Positions 6,302 through 52,441 of a stretch of 64,000 bases of DNA are shown here, piece after piece. The number at the start of each line of letters is the position of its first letter. Position 1 is the first letter of the stretch. This stretch comes from Candidatus Uhrbacteria bacterium CG10_big_fil_rev_8_21_14_0_10_50_16 (lineage in GTDB: Bacteria > Patescibacteriota > Patescibacteriia > UBA9934 > UBA11717), in assembly GCA_002774875.1 (NCBI GenBank), contig PCYM01000010.1, forward strand, positions 8,645 through 72,644, given 5' to 3'. The position numbers were made by a program, and so were the translations under genes. The notes beneath the pieces are model-generated. The model was not told where the DNA came from. It was given only the letters and a program-made list of their open reading frames with translations, and made no database searches.

Positions 6302-6790
6302 ATGACTCGGAGAACAGCTGAGCAACTGGCGTTTCACGTCAAGTTGCTGCAGGATCACGGCTACACCGTGATCCCGCCGCGGGCCCAGGGTGAAGGTGAG
6401 TTCAGCCAGGAGGAACTAGAGGCGATGGCCATTGCGCTTCTCGTGGCGCGTCAGCCGGGTGAGGGGCTCATGCAGGACCTGCTTGGCTGGCAGAAGATGA
6501 ACGGTTACCGCACGCGGATTCTCAAGCATCTGCCGGGACTGTTCTACCGAACTCAGGCAGAGAGGTATCGAACTCCAGGGCAGAGGGACAACTACGAGTA
6601 CTTCTGGGAGGTGTTGGTGCATCGCACGCGAGAGGACGTGCTTGGACTGAAACAGGTGGGCATTGGATCGGCGAACGAGTTCTTCAGTACGCTCGCCAAG
6701 CTGGGCATGTCCATGCGCATGCCCGAGAACCATCCGCTTATCCGCGAGGCAAGAGCGAGACTGGCGGAGAGGGCGTGCGAGCGCTCCTGA
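6302..6790 (+). CDS. Hypothetical protein encoded in a high-GC island
   Basis: Strong RBS GAAGGAGG 7 nt upstream of the ATG. About 60% GC versus about 49% for neighbours. No recognisable motif. Confidence 0.5.
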
Positions 6791-6849
6791 GCCGCGATCT
6801 GGGCCCGAAGAACAACGCTTCGGTCTCCAGATCGCGGCGTTGTGTTTTT
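6791..6849 (+). terminator. Rho-independent terminator (12-bp stem GCCGCGATCTGG/CCAGATCGCGGC plus T-run)
   Basis: Long GC stem followed by TTGTGTTTTT directly after the stop at 6790. Confidence 0.55.
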
Positions 6850-6999
6850 AAAACGTCTCCCAAAACCCTCATAACTTGACAACCGTCTTTTTTTCTGATT
6901 TTGACCTGAGAGCGAGACACTTGACCGTTGTCAAAATGCATGGTAGCCTCGCAGCACTTTCTGTCTGAACCATTTTTGTTGGGACATAACCGTATCGCT

Positions 7000-9933
7000 A
7001 TGCAAGATGTTATCCGCGTTCGCGGCGCACGCGTACACAACCTTAAAAACGTGAATGTCGAGATTCCAAAGGGAAAATTCACGGTCATCACAGGACTTTC
7101 TGGTTCCGGTAAATCCTCGCTCGCATTTGACACGATTTATGCAGAGGGACAGCGCCGTTACATGGAAAGTCTTTCTTCGTACGCACGCCAGTTTTTGGAA
7201 ATGCAGGATAAACCCGATGTGGATGAGATGAGCGGTTTGTCGCCGACGATTGCGATTGATCAAAAAACCGCCTCTACTAATCCACGTTCAACCGTTGGAA
7301 CCGTGACGGAAATTTATGATTCCCTGCGTGTCTTGTACGCGCGTGCAGGCCAGGCGCATTGTCCTGAGACGGGAGAACCTGTCACGGAGCAGACGCCAGA
7401 TCAAATGCTTGCAACAATCGTGGCAGCCGTTGCAGAGACGGATGCGTTTGTGTTGGCACCTGTGGTCAAGCAGCAACGGGGAGAGCATAAGCAGGCCATT
7501 GTCGCGGCGGAGGCAGCAGGTTATAAGAGTGCACGTTATGATGGGCTCCTGATGGATATCGAGGAGCTGACGGACATGCGCAAGGATAAAAAGAAGGTGC
7601 ACGACATAGATGTGGTGGTAGAACGTTACTCGCAAGGCCAAGAGTTGGATCGCGCGACGGTTTTGGAAACAATTAAAAAGACCCTGGACCTTGGAAACGG
7701 TGTCATGCTCCTGATGCGAGACGATACCGGGGAAGATGTGACGTTGAGTGAAGGAATGTTCTGTGCGGCGTCCGGGATCTCTATCCCAACGTTGGAGCCA
7801 AATATGTTTAGCTTTAACTCACCCCACGGAGCCTGTCCTGAATGTATGGGTCTTGGGGTAAAACTTGTTTTGGAGTCAGATTTGGTGATTCCAAATAAGC
7901 GTTTAACGCTTGCAGAAGGTGCGGTAAAACCTTGGAGCCGTATTGCAGGAAACTCCACATCCTACTTAGCCCTGTTAGAAGCGGTTGGTGCCAAGTATAA
8001 GTTTGATGTACATACGCCCCTCAACAAATTGTCTGAATCAAAATTACGGTTGATTCTTAAGGGATCGGCTGGAGAAACCTACACGGTGCAAGGGAAAACC
8101 ATGATATTCCCTGGTGTGCTGGGTATGTTGGAATCCAAATATCGCGAGACAGATTCTGAATACGTGCGCAAGGAATTGGAAACCTATATGCGTTCCATGA
8201 TTTGCCCAGAGTGTGATGGAAAGCGATTGAATGCTATTAGTCTTGCGGTCACCGTTGCCGGAAAAACGATTGACGCGTTGGTGCGTATTCCTTTGGATGA
8301 GTTGTTGGAATGGTTTGTGCAGGTGGATGTGCAAACACGCGAGGGTGGCAGTGCGTTGACCGAGTTGGAGCAAAAAGTGATTACTAATGTTAAACGCGAG
8401 GTGCTTAAGCGCTTGGAGGATTTGATTAACGTGGGATTGTCGTACCTGACGCTTGATCGATCTGCAGTTACATTGTCTGGCGGAGAGAGCCAGCGCGTGC
8501 GATTAGCTACACAGCTTGGAACCGACCTCACCGGCGTAATTTATATTTTGGATGAGCCTTCCATTGGGCTCCATCAACGTGACAATGATAAGTTGATCGA
8601 TACCATGAAGCGCTTGCGTGATGCCGGCAACACCGTGATTGTGGTGGAGCACGACGAGGCTATGATGCGCGCGGCGGATCATGTGATTGACATTGGACCA
8701 GGCGCGGGCGTCTATGGAGGAGAAGTAATTGCGGTGGGAACGGTGGGTGATTTAGAAAAATGTCCGGAGTCGTTAACGGGCCAGTACATGAGTGGCGCGC
8801 GTTGCATCACTATGCCCGCAAAACGTCGAGCTCTGAGTAAAAAGAATATTCGCATTCAAGGTGCAACGGCAAACAACCTGCAAGATGTGGATGTGTCCAT
8901 TCCGCTTGGTGCGTTGGTGTGTGTGACGGGTGTGTCGGGATCGGGAAAATCCACGTTGATTTTGGATATCTTGGGACGTGCGTTGTCCAAACATTTTTAT
9001 CGTGCCAAGGCGTATCCCGCTGAGCATAAATCGATTAAGGGTGTGGAAAATATTGACAAGGTGGTAACGGTAGATCAATCACCAATTGGTCGTACGCCAC
9101 GCTCTAACCCTGCTACATATACGGGCGTATTTACCACGATTCGTGATGTCTATGCGAGCGTACCAGAGGCAAAGATGCGCGGATACGATGCCGGAAAATT
9201 TAGCTTTAACGTTAAGGGAGGTGGACGATGTGAGACGTGTGGCGGAGATGGTGTGAAACGCATTGAGATGCAGTTTATGCCAGACGTGTACATGGATTGT
9301 CCGGAGTGTCATGGAAAGCGTTATAATGCCGAGGCGCTGGAGATTCATTACAAAGGTGAGACGATCTCTGACGTGCTCAACATGACCGTGGAGGAGGCGC
9401 GTCGATTCTTTACGGCGATCCCTGCGATTTACGACAAGCTCACAGTCCTGCATGAGGTGGGTCTTGGATACGTCAAGCTCGGGCAAAGTGCCACAACACT
9501 CTCGGGAGGTGAGGCACAGCGCGTCAAGCTAGCCACGGAATTATCTCGTCGGGCGACCGGGAAGACGCTGTACATCTTGGATGAGCCAACGACGGGATTA
9601 CACTTTGATGATATTAATCGACTGCTTGGTGTGTTGAATCAACTTGTTGATAAAGGAAACACGGTATTGATTATTGAGCATGACTTGGATGTGGTGCGTG
9701 CGGCCGATTATGTGATTGATATGGGACCGGAGGGCGGGACGCGTGGAGGTTTACTTGTGGCCGAGGGAACGCCGGAAGACATTATGAAGGTCAAAGAAAG
9801 TCTTACGGGAAAGTACCTTAAGGAACTCATTAAGACGCGAGGAGATCAAAAACCAATTGGTGTTGCAAAACCCAAGAGGGCCAAAGCGGCCGTTAAAAAA
9901 TCTGTAGCGGCCAAGAAAAAGAAGGAGCTCTAA
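7000..9933 (+). CDS. uvrA: Excinuclease ABC subunit A (UvrA), with Lys-rich C-terminal tail
   Basis: Two ABC ATPase modules ([14 protein letters not shown] and [10 protein letters not shown] Walker A; LSGGE signature twice). Zn-finger cysteines and N-terminus [17 protein letters not shown]. The ORF track begins at 6928, but the conserved N-terminus begins at ATG 7000. Confidence 0.92.
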
Positions 9934-26098: not shown

Positions 26099-26503
26099 AT
26101 GGATGTCTACTCATTTGCTTGGTGGTTTGGAACAATACCTCTCTATAACGCAACAACGCTGCGTATCTACTTTATTGTTTTTCTTTCGTTAATTATTGTT
26201 GGATCGCTTGTGCGGATGGTGAGTAGGCGACAACTGCAAGATCGTTTTCAGGTGGAGATTGCTAAGAAGTTTGCATCGATGCTCGTGGTAATGGGAATCG
26301 TTGGTCTTTGGTATTGGTTTGTGGCAGGTCAGCAAATTCCTTTTCTTTCGGCACGGTTTTGGCTTCCGTTGATCGTGGTTGCAATACTCGTGTGGATTCT
26401 GGCGATTGTTCGCTATGTACGCAAAGACGTTCCGGCGGCACGCGCGCAGGTCCACAGTACAAAAGATGACAAAAAGTATTTTGAACCGAAGCATAAAAAA
26501 TGA
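26099..26503 (+). CDS. Hypothetical membrane protein (3 TM)
   Basis: Hydrophobic 134-aa ORF. Confidence 0.45.
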   Translation: MDVYSFAWWFGTIPLYNATTLRIYFIVFLSLIIVGSLVRMVSRRQLQDRFQVEIAKKFASMLVVMGIVGLWYWFVAGQQIPFLSARFWLPLIVVAILVWILAIVRYVRKDVPAARAQVHSTKDDKKYFEPKHKK

Positions 26504-26838
26504 GACGGGAGGTTGGACAACGAGGTGAATTAATGGCGGCACGGTATCTCAAAAAAATGGGGTACCGTGTTTTGCAAACCAACGTTCGTTTAGCGGGCTG
26601 TGAGATTGATATTGTGGCAAAACAGGGCAAGGAGATTGTGTTTGTAGAGGTAAAAACGCGGCAATCCAATGTGGCAGGGTACCCGGAGGATTCGGTGACG
26701 CCGCAAAAGGTGCATCATATTGAGAGGGCGGCGCTGGCGTGGTTGTTGGAGAATGGCGAGCAACCCTGGCGCGTGGATGTGATTGCAGTGACTATGGGGG
26801 GAGAAAGCGAGGAAATTAAGCATTTTGTAGGTATTTAG
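26500..26838 (+). CDS. YraN-family (UPF0102) endonuclease-like protein
   Basis: GELMAARYLKKMGYRVL...GCEIDIVAKQGKEIVFVEVKTR matches the YraN/UPF0102 signature. Confidence 0.75.
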   Translation: MRREVGQRGELMAARYLKKMGYRVLQTNVRLAGCEIDIVAKQGKEIVFVEVKTRQSNVAGYPEDSVTPQKVHHIERAALAWLLENGEQPWRVDVIAVTMGGESEEIKHFVGI

Positions 26839-26904
26839 CAAATGCCGCAATGAGGGTTTTGCAATCAAGAGATTCCGCGCTCTAACAAGCATTTATCATC
26901 TAGT

Positions 26905-27028
26905 AATGTAGGAGCGAAGGGTTGTGTTTAGAAAAAGTGACAATCGGATAGAGACGTACAAGACTTACTCCTGACCAGCTGTCTTCTGAGTGCGAAGGCA
27001 CGAAGACGTGTCTCTACCTCCGAGTCAC
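26905..27028. repeat. About 125-bp direct repeat, copy 1 (about 85% identical to 28819-28943), left flank of the high-GC insert
   Basis: AATGTAGGAGCGAAGGGTTGTGTTTAGAAAAAGTGACAATCGGATAGAGACGTACAAGACTTACTCCTG... shared with 28819. Internally hairpin-rich. Confidence 0.75.
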
Positions 27029-27158
27029 TTTTTTAAACATAACCCGAGCAACCCTTGACATAAAAGCCTTATTCTGCTATATTTTGGCGTTGTTCTTTAC
27101 AAGAGATGACACGGGCGGGTGGTTCTTAGAGAGAACTGTTGCCCGGAGGAGAGAGATC

Positions 27159-27773
27159 ATGAAGGTGTTTTTGTTGGCGTTCCTACTGCTGCCCTCGATG
27201 GCGACGGCCGCCGAGGATTCTTCCACCTCGTCGACGGTCGAGATCACCACCCCGGGAAACCCCCGGGGCGTTCTGGCGGACGCCTCCGGGCCCGCCAAGC
27301 CTAGCCTGCCCGGCTCCACCGAGCCGACCCCCACGGCTCATTCCGCCCCTCCGGTGGTGATCGAGTTTCGCCAGGTCGACGATGGGTCGACCATCCAGGT
27401 CGTCGACGACGCGAGCGGAATGCTTGCGGCGGCCTACGACCGGATCGAACTTTTGGAGGGCGCCCTTGAGGCGCGTGACCAGCAGGTCGAGAGCCTGCGC
27501 GAGGAGCTCACCGCCGCTCGACTCTCCGACAAGGAGACCGGGAACACGGCGGTTCTGGGTCGCGAGATGCTCCTGGACAAGATCCGGGAGCTCACGGCAG
27601 CCCTCGCCGAGGCCCTCAAGACTTCGGAGGCCAAGGTCGCCGCCGCCCCCTCCACCGGGCTGACCCCCACGGTCGCCCCGGAGCCGGCTCCCACCCCCAA
27701 CACGAGCGCAGCGGAGGACATCCTCCGCCGCCTTGAGGAAGGAGATAGGAAGCTCAAGGCCGCAGGCCACTGA
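27159..27773 (+). CDS. Secreted Ala/Pro-rich coiled-coil protein (signal peptide MKVFLLAFLLLPSMATA), encoded in a about 66% GC island
   Basis: Promoter TTGACA-17-TATATT at about 27058-27085. RBS GGAGGAGAGAG before ATG 27159. Strong GC jump relative to flanks. Confidence 0.5.
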   Translation: MKVFLLAFLLLPSMATAAEDSSTSSTVEITTPGNPRGVLADASGPAKPSLPGSTEPTPTAHSAPPVVIEFRQVDDGSTIQVVDDASGMLAAAYDRIELLEGALEARDQQVESLREELTAARLSDKETGNTAVLGREMLLDKIRELTAALAEALKTSEAKVAAAPSTGLTPTVAPEPAPTPNTSAAEDILRRLEEGDRKLKAAGH

Positions 27774-27929
27774 GCACGAGGGATGGGGAACTTATTCTCA
27801 CACGTCTAAGGACCACATCCCGCCTGTGTCATCTCTGTAAAACAACACAATCAACTCCTACGGGAGTTTTTTGTTTTAAAAAAAGAGACCGCTCACAGAG
27901 AGTGAACGGCGTATGGGAAGGGTGTGGAG

Positions 27930-28820
27930 TCAGCTGAGTTGTGGCACAAACCCCGTGGGAACGCCCAGGTAGGCGTGATGGACACTGCCATGCATCACCT
28001 GGATTTCCGGCGCTTGATTCCTTCCTAGAATCATGAGCGTGGCCGGTTGCGACTTCAGAAGAGAGTTGTCGTTCCCTCCACAGATCATTCCCAGATCACC
28101 AAGCCTTGGCAACTGCGTTGGATGCGCAAGGAGCATGGCACCCACGCAAATGATGTCCAGAGGAAACTCGTCGGGTGCGCAGACCATCTTTGCACGCTGC
28201 GCAGAAGCGCCGGCAAACCGCTTTCCAAATTGGGCGGGGATGACCCAAATGCCACCGGCCTGTTGCTCTGCGATGTGCGCGAGACACTCCGCCGTGCGGT
28301 AGCTAATGGCAACGTCCAGCAGGACCCGGTTCGTACGCTTGTACCCAAAGGCGCAGAGAGCGCCAACCACGCGTCGCATACCGCGTAGGTAGCGTTCGGG
28401 TGCGTTGCCACGCGGACCTCCTGTGAGTCCGGCCAGACTGGGCACTGCAAACCATCCTTCGGCGCCTTCCGGCAGGGGTGCGCGACAGGTGCGTTCTACG
28501 TTGCTCATGGCAGGCTCCGGGCTTATGCCCAGACGTTCTGACAGGAGTGTGATCTGCACTCGAATTGGCTGAGGACCCGTGTAGAGACGGGGGTACCCTG
28601 CTTGTGACTGCACTGTCTCAAACGCGTACTGACTATCCATTGGGCGACAGGTATTTGCCCACGACATACTGCCTCCTATTCTCCTACATGTGTAAGGGAA
28701 CAGCTTTAGCTTTTCACAATGGGGTACAGCCGTCAATGGTGTTTTGAAATACGAGTTTACGAGTATTCTCAAAACGACTGTGTTTAAAGATGAGTGTATT
28801 CGACGAAGGAGTCCAGGCAA
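27930..28820 (-). CDS. Hypothetical protein in the high-GC island (longest ORF; true extent uncertain)
   Basis: ORF track only. High GC creates many overlapping ORFs; no motif recognised. Confidence 0.3.
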   Translation of the reverse strand: MPGLLRRIHSSLNTVVLRILVNSYFKTPLTAVPHCEKLKLFPYTCRRIGGSMSWANTCRPMDSQYAFETVQSQAGYPRLYTGPQPIRVQITLLSERLGISPEPAMSNVERTCRAPLPEGAEGWFAVPSLAGLTGGPRGNAPERYLRGMRRVVGALCAFGYKRTNRVLLDVAISYRTAECLAHIAEQQAGGIWVIPAQFGKRFAGASAQRAKMVCAPDEFPLDIICVGAMLLAHPTQLPRLGDLGMICGGNDNSLLKSQPATLMILGRNQAPEIQVMHGSVHHAYLGVPTGFVPQLS

Positions 28821-28943
28821 TGTAGGAAGCGAGGGATTGTGTTTACAGAAAGGGACAATCGGATAGAGACGTACAAGGCTTACTCCTGGCTAGCTGTCTT
28901 CTGAGTGCGAATGCACGCAGAGTGGCGTGGCCTGCCGAGTCAC
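28819..28943. repeat. About 125-bp direct repeat, copy 2, right flank of the high-GC insert, upstream of the nusA promoter
   Basis: See copy 1. Confidence 0.75.
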
Positions 28944-29065
28944 TTATTTTTGCACCACTCCGAGCGACCTCTTGACAACACGAATGAATTCCCTTAGTAT
29001 AGCGATGTAGATGACTCGGCCGCGGCCGGGCTCATTTTTTAGACAATCTTAACCAAAACAATTTT

Positions 29066-30508
29066 ATGGCTTCACCTATTGAACAAGCCATTCGACAAAT
29101 CGTCGAAGAAAAAGGACTCTCCTATGAGAGTGTGATGGAAACAATCGAGGCAGCCCTTTCGGCGGCTTTCAGAAAAGACTTTGGTCACAAATTACAAAAC
29201 ATCGAAGCGCAATTTAACACGGAAGATGGAAGCGTGAAGGTTTGGGATGTCAAAACAGTTGTGGAAGATCAGGAGGTCCCAGAGCTCGTGGAGGAACCCG
29301 AGGTACCAGAGGGACGCCGCGAACCACGCGAGGTGGTAGAGGAAGTGGACGCAGATGCTGAGCCAAAGTTCAATCCAAAAACGGAGGTCATGATAACGGT
29401 TGCGCAGCAAAAAAATCCCGATGCACAAATTGGAGATGTGATTCGAGAACCGTTGGAGGTCCCTGGTGAATTTGGTCGCATGGCCGCCATGACCGCCAAG
29501 CAGGTGATTACGCAGAAGCTCCGAGAAGCCGAGCGCGAGGTACTCTACAACGAGTATAAAGATCAAGAAGGTGAGGTGTTGATTGGGACCGTACAGCGTC
29601 GTGAAGGACGTGTGATTTTGGTCGACATTGGTCGTGGGACCGCGGTGATGCGCCCAGACGATCAAATCCCCGGAGAGCGATACAACTCGGGTGAGCGCAT
29701 CAAAGTCTTCTTGCGATCCGTAGATCTTGGAGTGCGTGGACCAGAAATTTTGGTATCGCGTACGGCGCCAGAACTTGTGTTGGAATTATTTAAAGTGGAA
29801 ATCCCCGAGATTGCCGATGGAACCGTGAAGATTGAATCTATTGCTCGTGAGGCCGGGTCTCGTTCCAAGGTAGCTGTGTCATGTGAGGATGAAGGTGTGG
29901 ATCCAATTGGTGCCTGCATTGGACAACGTGGCGCACGTATCCAGACCATTATCGCGGAACTTGGAAACGAGAAAGTAGACATTATTGAATTTGATACCGA
30001 TCCCGGTGTGTTTGTCATGAATGCGCTCGCACCCGCAAAAGTTTCTGGTGTGACCTTGGATGAGTCCGAGAAAATGGCAACGGTGACGGTTGCAGCGGAT
30101 CAATTGTCCTTGGCGATTGGTCGTGGAGGTCAAAACGTTCGCCTTGCTGCACGACTAACGGATTGGCGCATTAACGTTGCCGAGGAAGGTGGAGAGGTAA
30201 AGGGATCGAGTGAGGGAGCGGTGCGTACGCCGATCGCGGTTGTCAAACCTGCCGTTGTGGAAGCCGACGCGGAGGGAGCCTCCGAGGAAGTTGTGGATGC
30301 AGAAGCTGTTGAGGAAATAGAACAAGCAACCCTAACGGAAAGCCTGGATGAGCTTGCAGAAGCTGCGGATGATAACGACGATACAGCGGACCTAGAGGAT
30401 GAATCAGACGACGAGGCCGAGGAGGCACAGGCGGGACTTGAGGCGGACGAGCTTCCAACGGTAGAGATGGAAGAGTCAGACGAAGCGCACGAGGAGATTA
30501 CCGAGTAG
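29066..30508 (+). CDS. nusA: Transcription termination/antitermination factor NusA with long acidic C-terminal tail
   Basis: S1 and KH domain region (GACIGQRGARIQTIIAELGNEKVDII) and typical N-terminus. The last about 100 aa are E/D/A-rich. Confidence 0.9.
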   Translation: MASPIEQAIRQIVEEKGLSYESVMETIEAALSAAFRKDFGHKLQNIEAQFNTEDGSVKVWDVKTVVEDQEVPELVEEPEVPEGRREPREVVEEVDADAEPKFNPKTEVMITVAQQKNPDAQIGDVIREPLEVPGEFGRMAAMTAKQVITQKLREAEREVLYNEYKDQEGEVLIGTVQRREGRVILVDIGRGTAVMRPDDQIPGERYNSGERIKVFLRSVDLGVRGPEILVSRTAPELVLELFKVEIPEIADGTVKIESIAREAGSRSKVAVSCEDEGVDPIGACIGQRGARIQTIIAELGNEKVDIIEFDTDPGVFVMNALAPAKVSGVTLDESEKMATVTVAADQLSLAIGRGGQNVRLAARLTDWRINVAEEGGEVKGSSEGAVRTPIAVVKPAVVEADAEGASEEVVDAEAVEEIEQATLTESLDELAEAADDNDDTADLEDESDDEAEEAQAGLEADELPTVEMEESDEAHEEITE

Positions 30509-49488: not shown

Positions 49489-50142
49489 TCAGAGGCGATC
49501 GCAGTGGATGTTGAGTTGATCACCGAGATCGTAGGTGATGGCACCTTCGATCTCGGTGTAGCTCTCGTCGAACGTGGCATCGAGGCGTCCCTGCCCATCC
49601 ACGATGGCCACCAATTCGCGGTTGAAGAGCACTCCACCCACCTGGCCGGTGATCTCTTGACCATCTTCGGTCTGAAGAAAGACGGTGCTGTGGGACGGCC
49701 CGAAGGCGCAGTCCCACGCCCATCCGGCGTAGGGGGTGTCGATCGTGGGGACGTTGAGCATCCCTCCGTCCCGAACGCTGAACTCGATGGTCTCCGGCTG
49801 GTTGAACATCTCCGCCCAGCGAGGGTTGTTGTAGGTCACAACCTCCGCCTTGCCGTGGGCTACGGTCACCTCACACGGCGGGCGGGCCCAGGGGGCGTCG
49901 CGGGGATCGATCCCGGGGGGGATGACCTCGATCTCGTACGGACCTCCCTCCTGGAGGGTGACCGTGTGATCCACGGCATGGCCGTCGATCTCGAGGTCGA
50001 ACGCGTCCGGACGGCCGATGTCGACCGTGACCGTGACGTCGCCGCTGATGACCGTGTCGTCGTCGTCCCCGGGGAGCAGGGACGGGTCGCAACCGGTGAA
50101 CAGGACGCTGCCGAGCAGCGCCGCGATGAGCATGGAACGCAT
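49489..50142 (-). CDS. Lipoprotein (lipobox LFTGC) encoded in a about 66% GC island
   Basis: RBS GGAGAA before the internal ATG (MRSMLIAALLGSVLFTGC). The ORF track extends to 50208. Sharp GC jump at about 49430-50210. Confidence 0.5.
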   Translation of the reverse strand: MRSMLIAALLGSVLFTGCDPSLLPGDDDDTVISGDVTVTVDIGRPDAFDLEIDGHAVDHTVTLQEGGPYEIEVIPPGIDPRDAPWARPPCEVTVAHGKAEVVTYNNPRWAEMFNQPETIEFSVRDGGMLNVPTIDTPYAGWAWDCAFGPSHSTVFLQTEDGQEITGQVGGVLFNRELVAIVDGQGRLDATFDESYTEIEGAITYDLGDQLNIHCDRL

Positions 50143-50754
50143 GGCGTTCTCCTTTGCCCCGAAGGGCGGCATTTGCCGCGCTGTAGGGCGCTGCTGTGAG
50201 GGCTGCATCTAACGGATTTATTCCCGCCAGACACTGCTTCCTACCTATAAGCTAGCATATATTTTGAAAATTGTCAATAAAGACCCTCAACAAGGGCTTT
50301 CTCTCTTTAAAATAGCATTGCCGGTTTTACGCCAACGTTAGCCGTGTTTTTGAAAGGGTTCTACACAGGTTATCCACAGGTCAGTGTCGATGGGTGTCGA
50401 CAAAAAAGAGTAGAGAACCCGCCTTACTGGGTTGATCGTAAAAAAGGACGCGTGCAAAACCTGTCGACGTGGATCGACAAAAACACGTCCAATTACCCCC
50501 AGAATCCCCGATTGACGGAACAAAACGACTCTGTTGATATGGACGTGTTGACGCAAACAAACGACAACCCGGTGAAGCAAATCAACCGTTTGAATCACTT
50601 GCTTGTAGGTGTGTTTGCGCGCGACGTGTACGGATCGGGGGGCGTCTTAAGCGCTTGAGGCGCGCAATGTGATCTTTGCCTCTGGGTGGCTCTGGGTTTG
50701 GGGAGGCCTGTAACCGCTCAGGGCGACGGTCACATACCGTTGGAGGGTTTTATC

Positions 50755-51303
50755 ATGATGCAGAGAACAATTTTGTGTGCGGTTTTGGTGCTGTGTTGCC
50801 AGTGTACGGAGACGAATGAGCCTGGGTATGCCTATACGCCCATGTTCACAATTCCATTTAGTCGAGAGGAAACACTCTCCGTGAGTTCGTCTACACCTTG
50901 GCAGATGGAGCTGGAGGCAGATGTAGCCACGGATGTCGTGGCACCGCAACACGGCAAGGTGATTGAGGTTCGGGTGGGTTCTATTACCATTCGTCATTGG
51001 GACGCGAGTGCAGTTCTGGTGGTGGATGACGTGTGGGAGCCTCTGGTGTTGGTGGGTGATCGCCTGTGTGCAGGAGATGTGATCGGTCATTCCCGACGTG
51101 CGCGGGTTCGTGCATTTTGGGATGAGAAGGAGATGACGGATCAGCAAGACATTTCCATGGTTCGTTTGGTGCGAGATCACGTGGTGATCAACGGTTCCGA
51201 TGTGTCTGCAGGGGACAGAGTCTATAGTGCTCTTTCCTTGGCGCAGGACGAACGAGATTCAGATGTCGATCGGGCACGGTGTCCGTATCGAGATGGAGAG
51301 TAA
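50755..51303 (+). CDS. Lipoprotein, possibly a degenerate LytM-like domain, first gene of the T4SS-like module
   Basis: RBS GGAGGG 7 nt before ATG 50755. Signal/lipobox MMQRTILCAVLVLCCQC. A central segment (HGKVIEVRVGSITIRHWDASAVLVVDDV...) loosely resembles an M23 fold without the HxH motif. Confidence 0.45.
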   Translation: MMQRTILCAVLVLCCQCTETNEPGYAYTPMFTIPFSREETLSVSSSTPWQMELEADVATDVVAPQHGKVIEVRVGSITIRHWDASAVLVVDDVWEPLVLVGDRLCAGDVIGHSRRARVRAFWDEKEMTDQQDISMVRLVRDHVVINGSDVSAGDRVYSALSLAQDERDSDVDRARCPYRDGE

Positions 51304-51304
51304 G

Positions 51305-52441
51305 ATGAGAAATCGAGCAATGATGTGTGTAGTGATGGTTCTGACGGCATGCAACTTTGGACCCAGCGACTCGGAGACGGGTGACATGGGTGGTGGTGCG
51401 CCGGTAGTGGATGGTCGTCCCACGTTGCATATGCCGTTTCCAGTTGGGACGGCCTGGCGCTGCACACAGGGCGCCAACGGGTCGTGGTCGCATCGGTACA
51501 ACTCCACACGGTACGACGTGGACTTTGACACGCCCAACCCGCCGAGTCCGGTGACCAAGATCTACGCGCCGGTGGACGGTGTGGCGTACGTGCACAACGA
51601 CCAGACCGGATTCGGTCTGCACGTGAACGTGGATCATGGCGATGGCACCTACAGCGTTCTGGGGCACATGTCGCAGACGTTGGTGGAAGATGACAGTTGG
51701 GTGAGTGCCGGACAGCCCTTGGGTCTGGACGGCTGCACGGGCAACTGCACCGGAGATCATGTCCACCTGGGCGTGCACACGGGTGATGCCTCGCGTCCGG
51801 CGGGCGAAGGATCGTCCATCCCGTTCAACGTGTTTGCGGTGGACAGTAACGTGAGCATTACGCCCACGGCGCACAACACGAGTAACATGGTGTGCGGTCT
51901 CACGCAGGGACACTTCTACGAGAGCCAGTTGCCCGCGTGGTCGGACAACCAGACCGACGACTCGGATGTACCTACACCGCCGGACGAGGAAGACCCGACG
52001 CCATCGGATGCAGGTGACTCCGCGGACGACGATTCGGACGCAGCTGATGACGATTCGGACGCCGTAGACGACCCTGGTTCGCCGGACCCCAACCCGTCTA
52101 CGGGGCTTATTGAGCTCTGCTGGCTGCCCACCGGTCTTGTGAATCCGCACGACGGTGAGCTCTGGGTTTGGGACGGTGGATGGCAGACGGTCAACATGGT
52201 CGCGGGCGGCTTTGTGCAGCTCTGCGGCACGGTGACGGCGGACCCTGGTGACGTGTTGTTGATCAACGGGGAATTTGAGGCGGCCAACGTGCTGTCCAAC
52301 CCCTGGTGGATCTGCAGCAACTGGGGTGCTGCCGGTGGCATGGTGGTGCATGGGACGTTCTTCGTGAACGGCATCGCACTCCCGGCCACGGGTGTGGATA
52401 ACGGTGTCAACGGTTGCAATACGCGACTGATGGTGCCCTAA
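51305..52441 (+). CDS. M23-family (LytM-type) peptidoglycan endopeptidase lipoprotein with acidic linker, the T4SS-associated cell-wall hydrolase
   Basis: Lipobox MRNRAMMCVVMVLTAC. M23 motifs H-x-x-x-D (SHRYNSTRYDVD) and HxH (GDHVHLGVH). D/E/P-rich linker followed by a C-terminal domain. Confidence 0.75.
   Translation: MRNRAMMCVVMVLTACNFGPSDSETGDMGGGAPVVDGRPTLHMPFPVGTAWRCTQGANGSWSHRYNSTRYDVDFDTPNPPSPVTKIYAPVDGVAYVHNDQTGFGLHVNVDHGDGTYSVLGHMSQTLVEDDSWVSAGQPLGLDGCTGNCTGDHVHLGVHTGDASRPAGEGSSIPFNVFAVDSNVSITPTAHNTSNMVCGLTQGHFYESQLPAWSDNQTDDSDVPTPPDEEDPTPSDAGDSADDDSDAADDDSDAVDDPGSPDPNPSTGLIELCWLPTGLVNPHDGELWVWDGGWQTVNMVAGGFVQLCGTVTADPGDVLLINGEFEAANVLSNPWWICSNWGAAGGMVVHGTFFVNGIALPATGVDNGVNGCNTRLMVP

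Follow-up and report, generated by a model that had tools for sequence, protein, structure and literature searches.

A GC-rich segment between yraN and nusA

The DNA analyzed here, hereafter the window, is a 64,000-nucleotide (nt) stretch of contig PCYM01000010.1 (positions 8,645 to 72,644) from a metagenome-assembled genome (MAG) of Candidatus Uhrbacteria (candidate phyla radiation [CPR]/Patescibacteria) with COV06_ locus tags. Within it, two direct repeats, which we call module copies and which are the subject of this study, bracket a segment of deviant base composition between yraN and nusA. This arrangement had been proposed in an earlier, sequence-only reading of the window and was confirmed by repeat finding and by the GC (guanine-plus-cytosine) profile. 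On the left, yraN (UPF0102; positions 26500 to 26838, plus strand; Pfam PF02021, E = 2.6e-26) is the last gene of a conserved upstream block whose synteny is kept in Uhrbacteria. On the right lies nusA (29066 to 30508, plus strand), with the Pfam domains NusA_N and KH_5. The interior of the segment consists of two convergent genes, gene A (27159 to 27773, plus strand) and gene B (27930 to 28667, minus strand), with a terminator-like hairpin on each. In the list of open reading frames (ORFs), these are the secreted Ala/Pro-rich coiled-coil protein and the opposite-strand ORF that the sequence-only reading had placed in the segment.

The GC content reaches 65 to 70% across positions 27100 to 27850 and 58 to 63% across 28000 to 28600, compared with roughly 50% for the window. 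The figure of about 66% that had been given for the whole insert applies only to the gene A region (65%); the complete inter-repeat stretch has 59.4%. At third codon positions (GC3), the values are 84% for gene A, 62% for gene B, and 42 to 58% for core genes. Besides being compositionally deviant, as had been claimed, the segment is lineage specific, since yraN and nusA are just 120 to 190 nt apart in Uhrbacteria such as those represented by contigs L006, L009, and L038. Where the gap is not that short, other Uhrbacteria carry unrelated membrane or secreted genes at this position. The yraN-nusA junction is a variable spot of long standing.

The repeats share a 94-nt core (26913 to 27006 and 28828 to 28921; 89% identity; spacing, 1,915 nt). 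An nhmmer profile extends the copies to 26897 to 27061 and 28812 to 28978, with 137 of 162 aligned bases identical (84.6%). The identity of about 85% in the sequence-only reading therefore stands, but its length of about 125 base pairs (bp) was an underestimate: the repeat measures ∼165 bp, or ∼220 to 240 bp with the 5′ flanks, which recur at another locus. The longest identical stretches within these 85%-identical copies are 24 and 20 nt, and the chance expectation for the shared 24-mer is 0.00. The left module copy (26839 to 27061, plus strand) comprises an L-type 5′ flank (26839 to 26896) and a core (26897 to 27061) that contains a long hairpin (26925 to 27040) and ends in a −35 box, TTGACA (nhmmer E = 4e-50; covariance model score, 122 bits; fold z score, −5.3). 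The right module copy (28739 to 28978, plus strand; nhmmer E = 1e-56) comprises an R-type 5′ flank (28739 to 28811) and a core (28812 to 28978) whose last six bases are the −35 box of nusA.

The repeats belong to a dispersed family with a putative promoter element

Copies of the module also occur outside the window, with at least six in this MAG and at least three in a sister Uhrbacteria genome of the UBA11717 type. The additional copies of this MAG lie at L048 7346 and 9518, at L047 580 to 749 (the same locus as L046 11380 to 11549), and at L045 4163 to 4283. Contigs L045 to L048 were found by an exact-pattern scan of Joint Genome Institute (JGI) metagenomes, and the COV06_ locus tags of their proteins assign them to the same MAG as the window. 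In the sister, copies are located upstream of nusA (start of L001; ends of L039, L041, and L042), at L039 4691 to 4863, and, inverted, after groEL (end of L001). The copy at L039 4691 to 4863 is likewise inverted and lies upstream of a gene for a 164-amino-acid (aa) protein, at a rearrangement breakpoint relative to the window. In all, seven contig ends lie within repeat copies, and copies exist at loci without a paired partner.

The rearrangement itself concerns a block with uvrA and the 164-aa gene (L039 978 to 4863; window 6308 to 9933), which is inverted in the sister and has moved beside tRNA-Val/tRNA-Leu, with the inverted repeat copy at the junction.

The module is specific to a narrow Uhrbacteria clade. 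A covariance-model search of 27 loci, including the nusA regions of other Uhrbacteria, recovered no copies outside the known clade, and a viral collection contained neither a copy of the repeat nor a relative of gene A. Rfam 15 yielded nothing for the window at gathering thresholds, and relaxing the cutoff to E ≤ 10 for positions 26700 to 29200 brought up no relevant family.

Both modules of the window recur, together with their flanks, on L048. The left copy and its 68-nt 5′ flank reappear at L048 7285 to 7448 (84.8% identity), behind an unrelated GC-rich gene, and the right copy with its R-type 5′ flank reappears at L048 9446 to 9619. A pair of L-type and R-type modules thus brackets different cargo twice in one genome (in the window and at L048 7285 to 9790), which keeps the idea of cassette exchange alive and does not prove it.

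The 3′ end of the module, CCGAGCGACCCCTTGACA, would supply the −35 box of the next gene's sigma70-type promoter, as judged from the consensus match. Eight copies, every complete one included, end in TTGACA, followed by 17 nt (18 in L039), a TAnnnT-like hexamer, and a gene in the same orientation. In the window, a promoter scan placed the putative gene A promoter at 27055 to 27083 (plus strand; TTGACA-17-TATATT with an upstream TG; 11 of 12 matches), in agreement with the earlier claim that the coiled-coil gene has a sigma70-like promoter of its own. The predicted nusA promoter (28972 to 29000, plus strand; TTGACA-17-TAGTAT) was found by the same scan and is identical in L001. The right repeat had been described as lying just upstream of this promoter; it does adjoin it, but its last bases are the −35 hexamer itself.

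Over 100 to 170 nt, module copies are 79 to 95% identical in front of gene A, nusA, the 164-aa gene, a gene for a membrane protein, and three GC-rich genes whose products are secreted or lipoprotein-like. Among this genome's six copies, five are followed by genes with a GC3 of 67 to 93%, namely, gene A, two lipoprotein-like genes (the L048 array), and the genes for a 205-aa membrane-anchored protein and a 303-aa membrane protein; the sixth precedes nusA. With a 13% background, a rough binomial calculation gives P = 2e-4 for this association. On L048, ORFs of 65 to 71% GC alternate with module-bearing spacers of 45 to 50% GC, which shows that the GC enrichment is confined to the ORFs. A literature search for GC-rich Uhrbacteria genes brought up no pertinent work.

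Two unrelated GC-rich lipoprotein-like genes on L048 are each followed by a near-identical 3′ terminator hairpin (GCACAACGACGCAACGCGTCGAT...ATCGGCGCGTTGTTGTTTTTG; L048 7190 to 7265 and 9140 to 9210), so that both cassette ends are conserved while the ORFs differ.

Hairpin structure and mosaicism

Intact copies of the module form a ∼115-nt hairpin clamped by an A-run and a T-run (fold z scores, −5.3, −7.8, and −6.9), with the ends TGTTTAGAAAAAGTGAC and GTCACTTTTTTAAACAT. RNAalifold, applied to four copies, predicted 34 pairs, 7 of which have changes on both sides. At the center of the hairpin, a conserved segment of ∼30 nt is predicted to stay unpaired.

The inner arms of the hairpin come in two types that are unrelated in sequence and self-complementary within each type: ATAGAGACGT and ACGTGTCTCTA in type 1, GCCATGC and GCGTGGC in type 2. 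In the window, the left copy is purely type 1; the right copy, a chimera, joins a type 1 left arm to a type 2 right arm, and its fold is no better than those of shuffled sequences (z = −0.3). Both L048 copies have a 165-nt segment in place of the right hairpin half. The copies are therefore mosaics, which is the expected outcome of recombination among copies.

Comparison with the sister genome

Of the genomes in the collection, UBA11717 is the nearest relative, with NusA proteins ∼86% identical; its nusA contig (L001) starts within the repeat. Contigs L039 to L042, from the same species, carry both gene A and gene B, and all of them stop inside the right repeat. The order in the sister is yraN-gene A-gene B-repeat-nusA, and the left repeat is absent. 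There, the TTGACA of the gene A promoter comes only 42 nt after yraN, and homology with the window resumes exactly at this hexamer (27055). In this comparison with L039, the only one available between a filled and an empty site, a 42-nt spacer is replaced, and no clean insertion is seen. Genomes without genes A and B also lack the repeat.

As the sister has both genes without the left repeat, the two repeats are not the scars of one 1.9-kb insertion. The sequence-only reading had taken them as footprints of insertion and had itself named a widespread conserved leader unrelated to insertion as the contrary outcome; a family dispersed beside unrelated genes, together with a sister locus devoid of the left copy, is what we found. 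Its other suggestion, a duplication of a leader-like element, survives in part: the left copy did arise by paralogous duplication of a "leader-like" promoter element, but it is not an insertion scar.

Divergence from the sister differs strongly along the locus. At 4-fold-degenerate sites, seven flanking or nearby core genes differ by 38 to 58%, gene A by 27%, and gene B by 5.1% (136 sites). A block from 27705 to 28738 shows 94 to 100% nucleotide identity to the sister, versus ∼79% in its flanks (blastn, 94.9% over 1,051 nt), and it ends on the right where the right module begins. The low divergence of this block, in coding and adjacent noncoding sequence alike, suggests that it was exchanged between the lineages long after they split. 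The notion of one foreign insertion consequently holds only for recent movement of the gene B block (5% versus 38 to 58%); the interior is composed of two pieces with different histories, and gene A, which evolves fast, has been at the yraN-nusA junction for longer.

A proposed portable promoter module and alternative explanations

The explanation toward which we lean, with some reserve, is that the repeats are paralogous copies of a portable hairpin-plus-promoter module of ∼165 to 240 nt that has been spreading and recombining among loci. From 5′ to 3′, the module would consist of a variable 5′ flank, the ∼115-nt A/T-clamped hairpin ending in a T-run, and a 3′ end with the −35 box, and it may act as a portable insulator plus promoter. 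The hairpin and T-run would block read-through from upstream, and TTGACA-17-TAnnnT would drive the downstream gene, mainly GC3-rich genes for secreted, lipoprotein-like, or membrane proteins and also nusA. Copies would have spread and been reshuffled through recombination with one another, which would account for their mosaic structure. At the yraN-nusA junction, the left module may have been gained before the gene A promoter in this genome or lost in the sister, independently of the genes, and the gene B block was probably replaced or imported recently via recombination with a related lineage.

Several observations weigh against this explanation. Promoter and terminator activities are predicted from consensus matches only. 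In the sister copy after groEL on L001, the one exception to the promoter pattern, ATAGCA stands where TTGACA would be expected, and no gene follows in the same direction. Copies can persist without an intact hairpin, since it is missing from three of this genome's six (the right window copy and both L048 copies); the hairpin is also far longer than a typical intrinsic terminator, and its covariation is based on four full copies. For the left copy, the data do not distinguish a gain here from a loss in the sister. As for the exchanged block, constraint instead of exchange might in principle account for the few synonymous differences in gene B, but the adjacent noncoding DNA is equally conserved, which speaks against this.

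The interpretation nearest to the sequence-only reading is that the 1.9 kb form a single foreign island that entered at a leader-like element through homologous or site-specific recombination, with the repeats as an attL/attR-like duplication. Direct repeats around a compositionally deviant, lineage-specific segment are what such an event would leave, the exchanged block borders on the right module with its right end (28738), and the L-type/R-type pair encloses other cargo on L048. Yet the repeats are just 85% identical, with a longest common stretch of 24 nt, genes A and B differ in their divergence histories, and some copies have no paired partner; we consider a single island very unlikely. 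An integrated, att-bounded element in particular was rejected, since neither gene matches a recombinase family and the corresponding site in the sister is filled with the right repeat alone. In a related scenario, these host-dependent CPR bacteria would shuffle genes for surface proteins within a fixed frame of modules: recombination, within the genome and with related lineages, would swap unrelated secreted or lipoprotein-like ORFs in and out between L-type and R-type modules. The ORF-limited GC3 (81 to 93%, in a genome of ∼50% GC) would then be actively maintained, for example, by GC-biased gene conversion during frequent recombination, and would be no relic of a foreign donor. We regard this as unlikely, if less so than the single island. 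Foreign origin could also apply to the GC-rich genes alone, as recent imports from a high-GC donor such as a host organism, with the module a mere local promoter region upstream of the landing sites. The GC3 of 81 to 93% in a genome of ∼50% GC fits such an origin, as does the fact that most of these proteins are orphans. However, the rise in GC stops at the ORF boundaries, with untranslated regions (UTRs), promoters, and terminators at ∼45 to 52%, and the insert has no DNA match in plasmid or phage collections. Among 5.8 billion proteins, gene A has three relatives only, all on Uhrbacteria-type contigs. A more distant member of the Uhrbacteria (L002) has, directly upstream of nusA, a gene for a 398-aa secreted coiled-coil protein (70% GC; GC3, 91%), a positional counterpart indicating that high GC was kept over a long divergence and was not ameliorated. 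We therefore find recent import highly doubtful, and the actinobacterial donor suggested earlier finds no backing, because gene A has homologues only in Uhrbacteria, gene B is a divergent member of a large uncharacterized Patescibacteria/CPR family, and the genome that carries both genes is itself an Uhrbacteria MAG.

Two further alternatives concern the repeat rather than its cargo. It could be a nonautonomous transposable element, similar to a miniature inverted-repeat transposable element (MITE) or to repetitive extragenic palindromic (REP) or Correia sequences, whose hairpin arms are terminal inverted repeats and whose outward −35 box is incidental. The copies are indeed multiple and intergenic, they have A/T-rich inverted arms of 24 to 30 nt and break assemblies, one lies at a rearrangement breakpoint between the two genomes, and Correia elements of Neisseria likewise create promoters. 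Homology between copies nevertheless runs 25 to 90 nt past both arms, so the arms do not mark the ends of the repeated unit, and a classic MITE was rejected on this ground. In addition, the copies are mosaic and not uniform, no transposase was seen near them in the loci read, and a target-site duplication is not definable because the sister shows replacement rather than clean insertion. Such an element strikes us as a rather doubtful explanation. Alternatively, the hairpin may be a structured RNA (a small RNA gene, a cis-regulatory leader, or a riboswitch) that was duplicated for shared regulation of the downstream genes. The significant stability of intact copies, the compensatory changes, and the conserved central segment of ∼30 nt, predicted to be unpaired, are in keeping with this, but a known RNA family was rejected for want of an Rfam match, even at E ≤ 10, and the hairpin is broken in half of this genome's copies. 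Moreover, the promoter scan found promoter-like sites only 3′ of the hairpin and none 5′ of it, such that the downstream mRNA would exclude the hairpin, and we judge an RNA function to be quite improbable. The portable hairpin-plus-promoter module is the reading with the best support.

Relation to known systems

Putative mobile promoters (PMPs) are similar (at least 80%) promoter-bearing sequences upstream of nonhomologous genes (Matus-Garcia, Nijveen, and van Passel, Nucleic Acids Research 2012, PMC3488235), and the module resembles them in being of this ≥80%-similar type, in preceding nonhomologous genes, and in being shared with a related genome. It differs from PMPs in its length (165 to 240 nt versus 50 to 100 nt), in the large covarying hairpin upstream of the −35 box, in its mosaic nature, and in its bias toward one compositional gene class.

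With integron attC sites, the module shares imperfect hairpin repeats whose structure is kept better than their sequence and which alternate with unrelated ORFs in the same orientation. An attC identity was rejected, since the module lies 5′ of ORFs and bears a promoter whereas attC sites lie 3′ of promoterless ORFs, and since core motifs are missing: inspection of the hairpin ends revealed no RYYYAAC/GTTRRRY cores. No IntI was seen, although no window-wide search for IntI was made.

The Correia/NEMIS (Neisseria miniature insertion sequence) elements and other MITE-like or REP-like repeats are short, multicopy, and intergenic; they have hairpin-forming inverted arms and are associated with promoter supply, transcription termination, and rearrangements. 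The module is likewise short, multicopy, and intergenic, with inverted arms. In contrast to these elements, its homology extends past the arms, its copies are few (at least six seen), and their orientation to the downstream gene is nearly constant; neither a partner transposase nor a duplicated target was detected.

The vsp/vlp loci of Mycoplasma, bacteria with small genomes that depend on a host, hold arrays of fast-evolving, repeat-rich surface-lipoprotein genes, each with a near-identical promoter and 5′ region, and recombination reshuffles their expression. The L048 array looks similar, except that the coding regions here are mutually unrelated, the signal peptides lie outside the repeat, and one copy serves the housekeeping gene nusA. 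Unlike at vsp/vlp loci, we found neither a site-specific invertase nor a homopolymeric phase-variation tract here.

How CPR/Patescibacteria control and vary the proteins on their cell surface, presumably the ones used for host attachment, is very poorly understood. The locus displays a reusable promoter-bearing repeat wired mainly to compositionally distinct secreted-protein genes, and one piece of it appears to have been exchanged between lineages long after their divergence. The GC3 enrichment of these genes is limited to the ORFs and persists in divergent members of the Uhrbacteria, a pattern that simple "foreign DNA" models leave unexplained. In practical terms, the repeat breaks metagenome assemblies at these loci, and island callers based on GC content would mislabel such genes as high-GC imports.

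Genes A and B

Gene A encodes 204 aa, identical to the called protein P0017, with a signal-like N terminus and an Ala/Pro-rich, coiled-coil-like sequence (68% GC). It shares 78% aa identity with its sister homologue, with indels and coiled-coil repeat expansions. Its length varies by coiled-coil duplication, from 204 aa in the window (27380 to 27700) to 241 aa in L039 (8097 to 8822) and 351 aa, as called, in L041 (2736 to 3791); outside this length difference, the L039 and L041 contigs are 100% identical. Neither gene A nor gene B matched a Pfam, NCBIfam, or PHROG family, recombinases included.

Around gene A lies a 29-nt inverted repeat with one arm in the 5′ UTR (27091 to 27119, plus strand), 83% complementary to the other, found by repeat finding in the 3′ UTR (27819 to 27847, plus strand). 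It is identical in the sister and has the potential for long-range pairing between the UTRs; three other GC-rich cassettes showed no comparable complementarity. Just past the stop codon, a hairpin (GGGATGGGG...CCACATCCC; 27780 to 27821, plus strand) has the same motif as one behind the gene upstream of nusA in L002. This shared post-stop motif, AGGGATGGGG...ACCACATCCCGCC (1305 to 1350 in L002), and the position of the two genes are their only link, BLASTP having found no significant similarity between the gene A product and the L002 protein. The terminator scan placed the terminator-like hairpin and T-run of gene A at 27853 to 27875 (plus strand).

The product of gene B has 245 aa and is identical to NCBI protein COV06_04270, which is annotated with 236 aa; the gene has 59.5% GC, and the terminator scan located its terminator-like hairpin and T-run at 27888 to 27910 (minus strand). 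A structure model of the protein resembles no recombinase fold. Over the last ∼35 residues of the family (P0004 to P0016), near-identical members differ almost only at scattered positions (...APxFxWxxGxLxFxxxW...GSASGF), a pattern that resembles the variable regions of diversity-generating retroelements (DGRs), and the model gave weak C-type-lectin-like hits. Gene B was rejected as a DGR target at this locus, as the window contains no second copy of its 3′ region and no ORF for a YxDD-type reverse transcriptase (RT); nor was a DGR template repeat or RT found near the window copy or in L044. Members of the family occur on five IMG/VR contigs classed as viral (L049 to L053), which may be misclassified CPR contigs or prophage regions.

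Other features of the window and genome

A second GC-rich island in the window contains a 239-aa lipoprotein-like ORF (49489 to 50208, minus strand; GC3, 83%) and a gene for a 413-aa secreted protein with an M23 peptidase domain (51200 to 52441, plus strand; GC3, 74%). It sits between the genes for a 3,158-aa giant protein and a 950-aa membrane protein, and no repeat copy lies nearby. Elsewhere in the same MAG, a GC-rich ORF (L045 224 to 1627, minus strand; GC3, 82%) combines sigma-70 region 4 with the C-terminal domain of the RNA polymerase alpha subunit, an unusual fusion. Finally, the nusA leader contains a terminator-like hairpin with a T-run (29015 to 29040, plus strand) that is also kept in L001, L002, and L003, where its base changes are paired; lying between the predicted nusA promoter and the start codon, it may be an attenuator through which NusA regulates its own expression.

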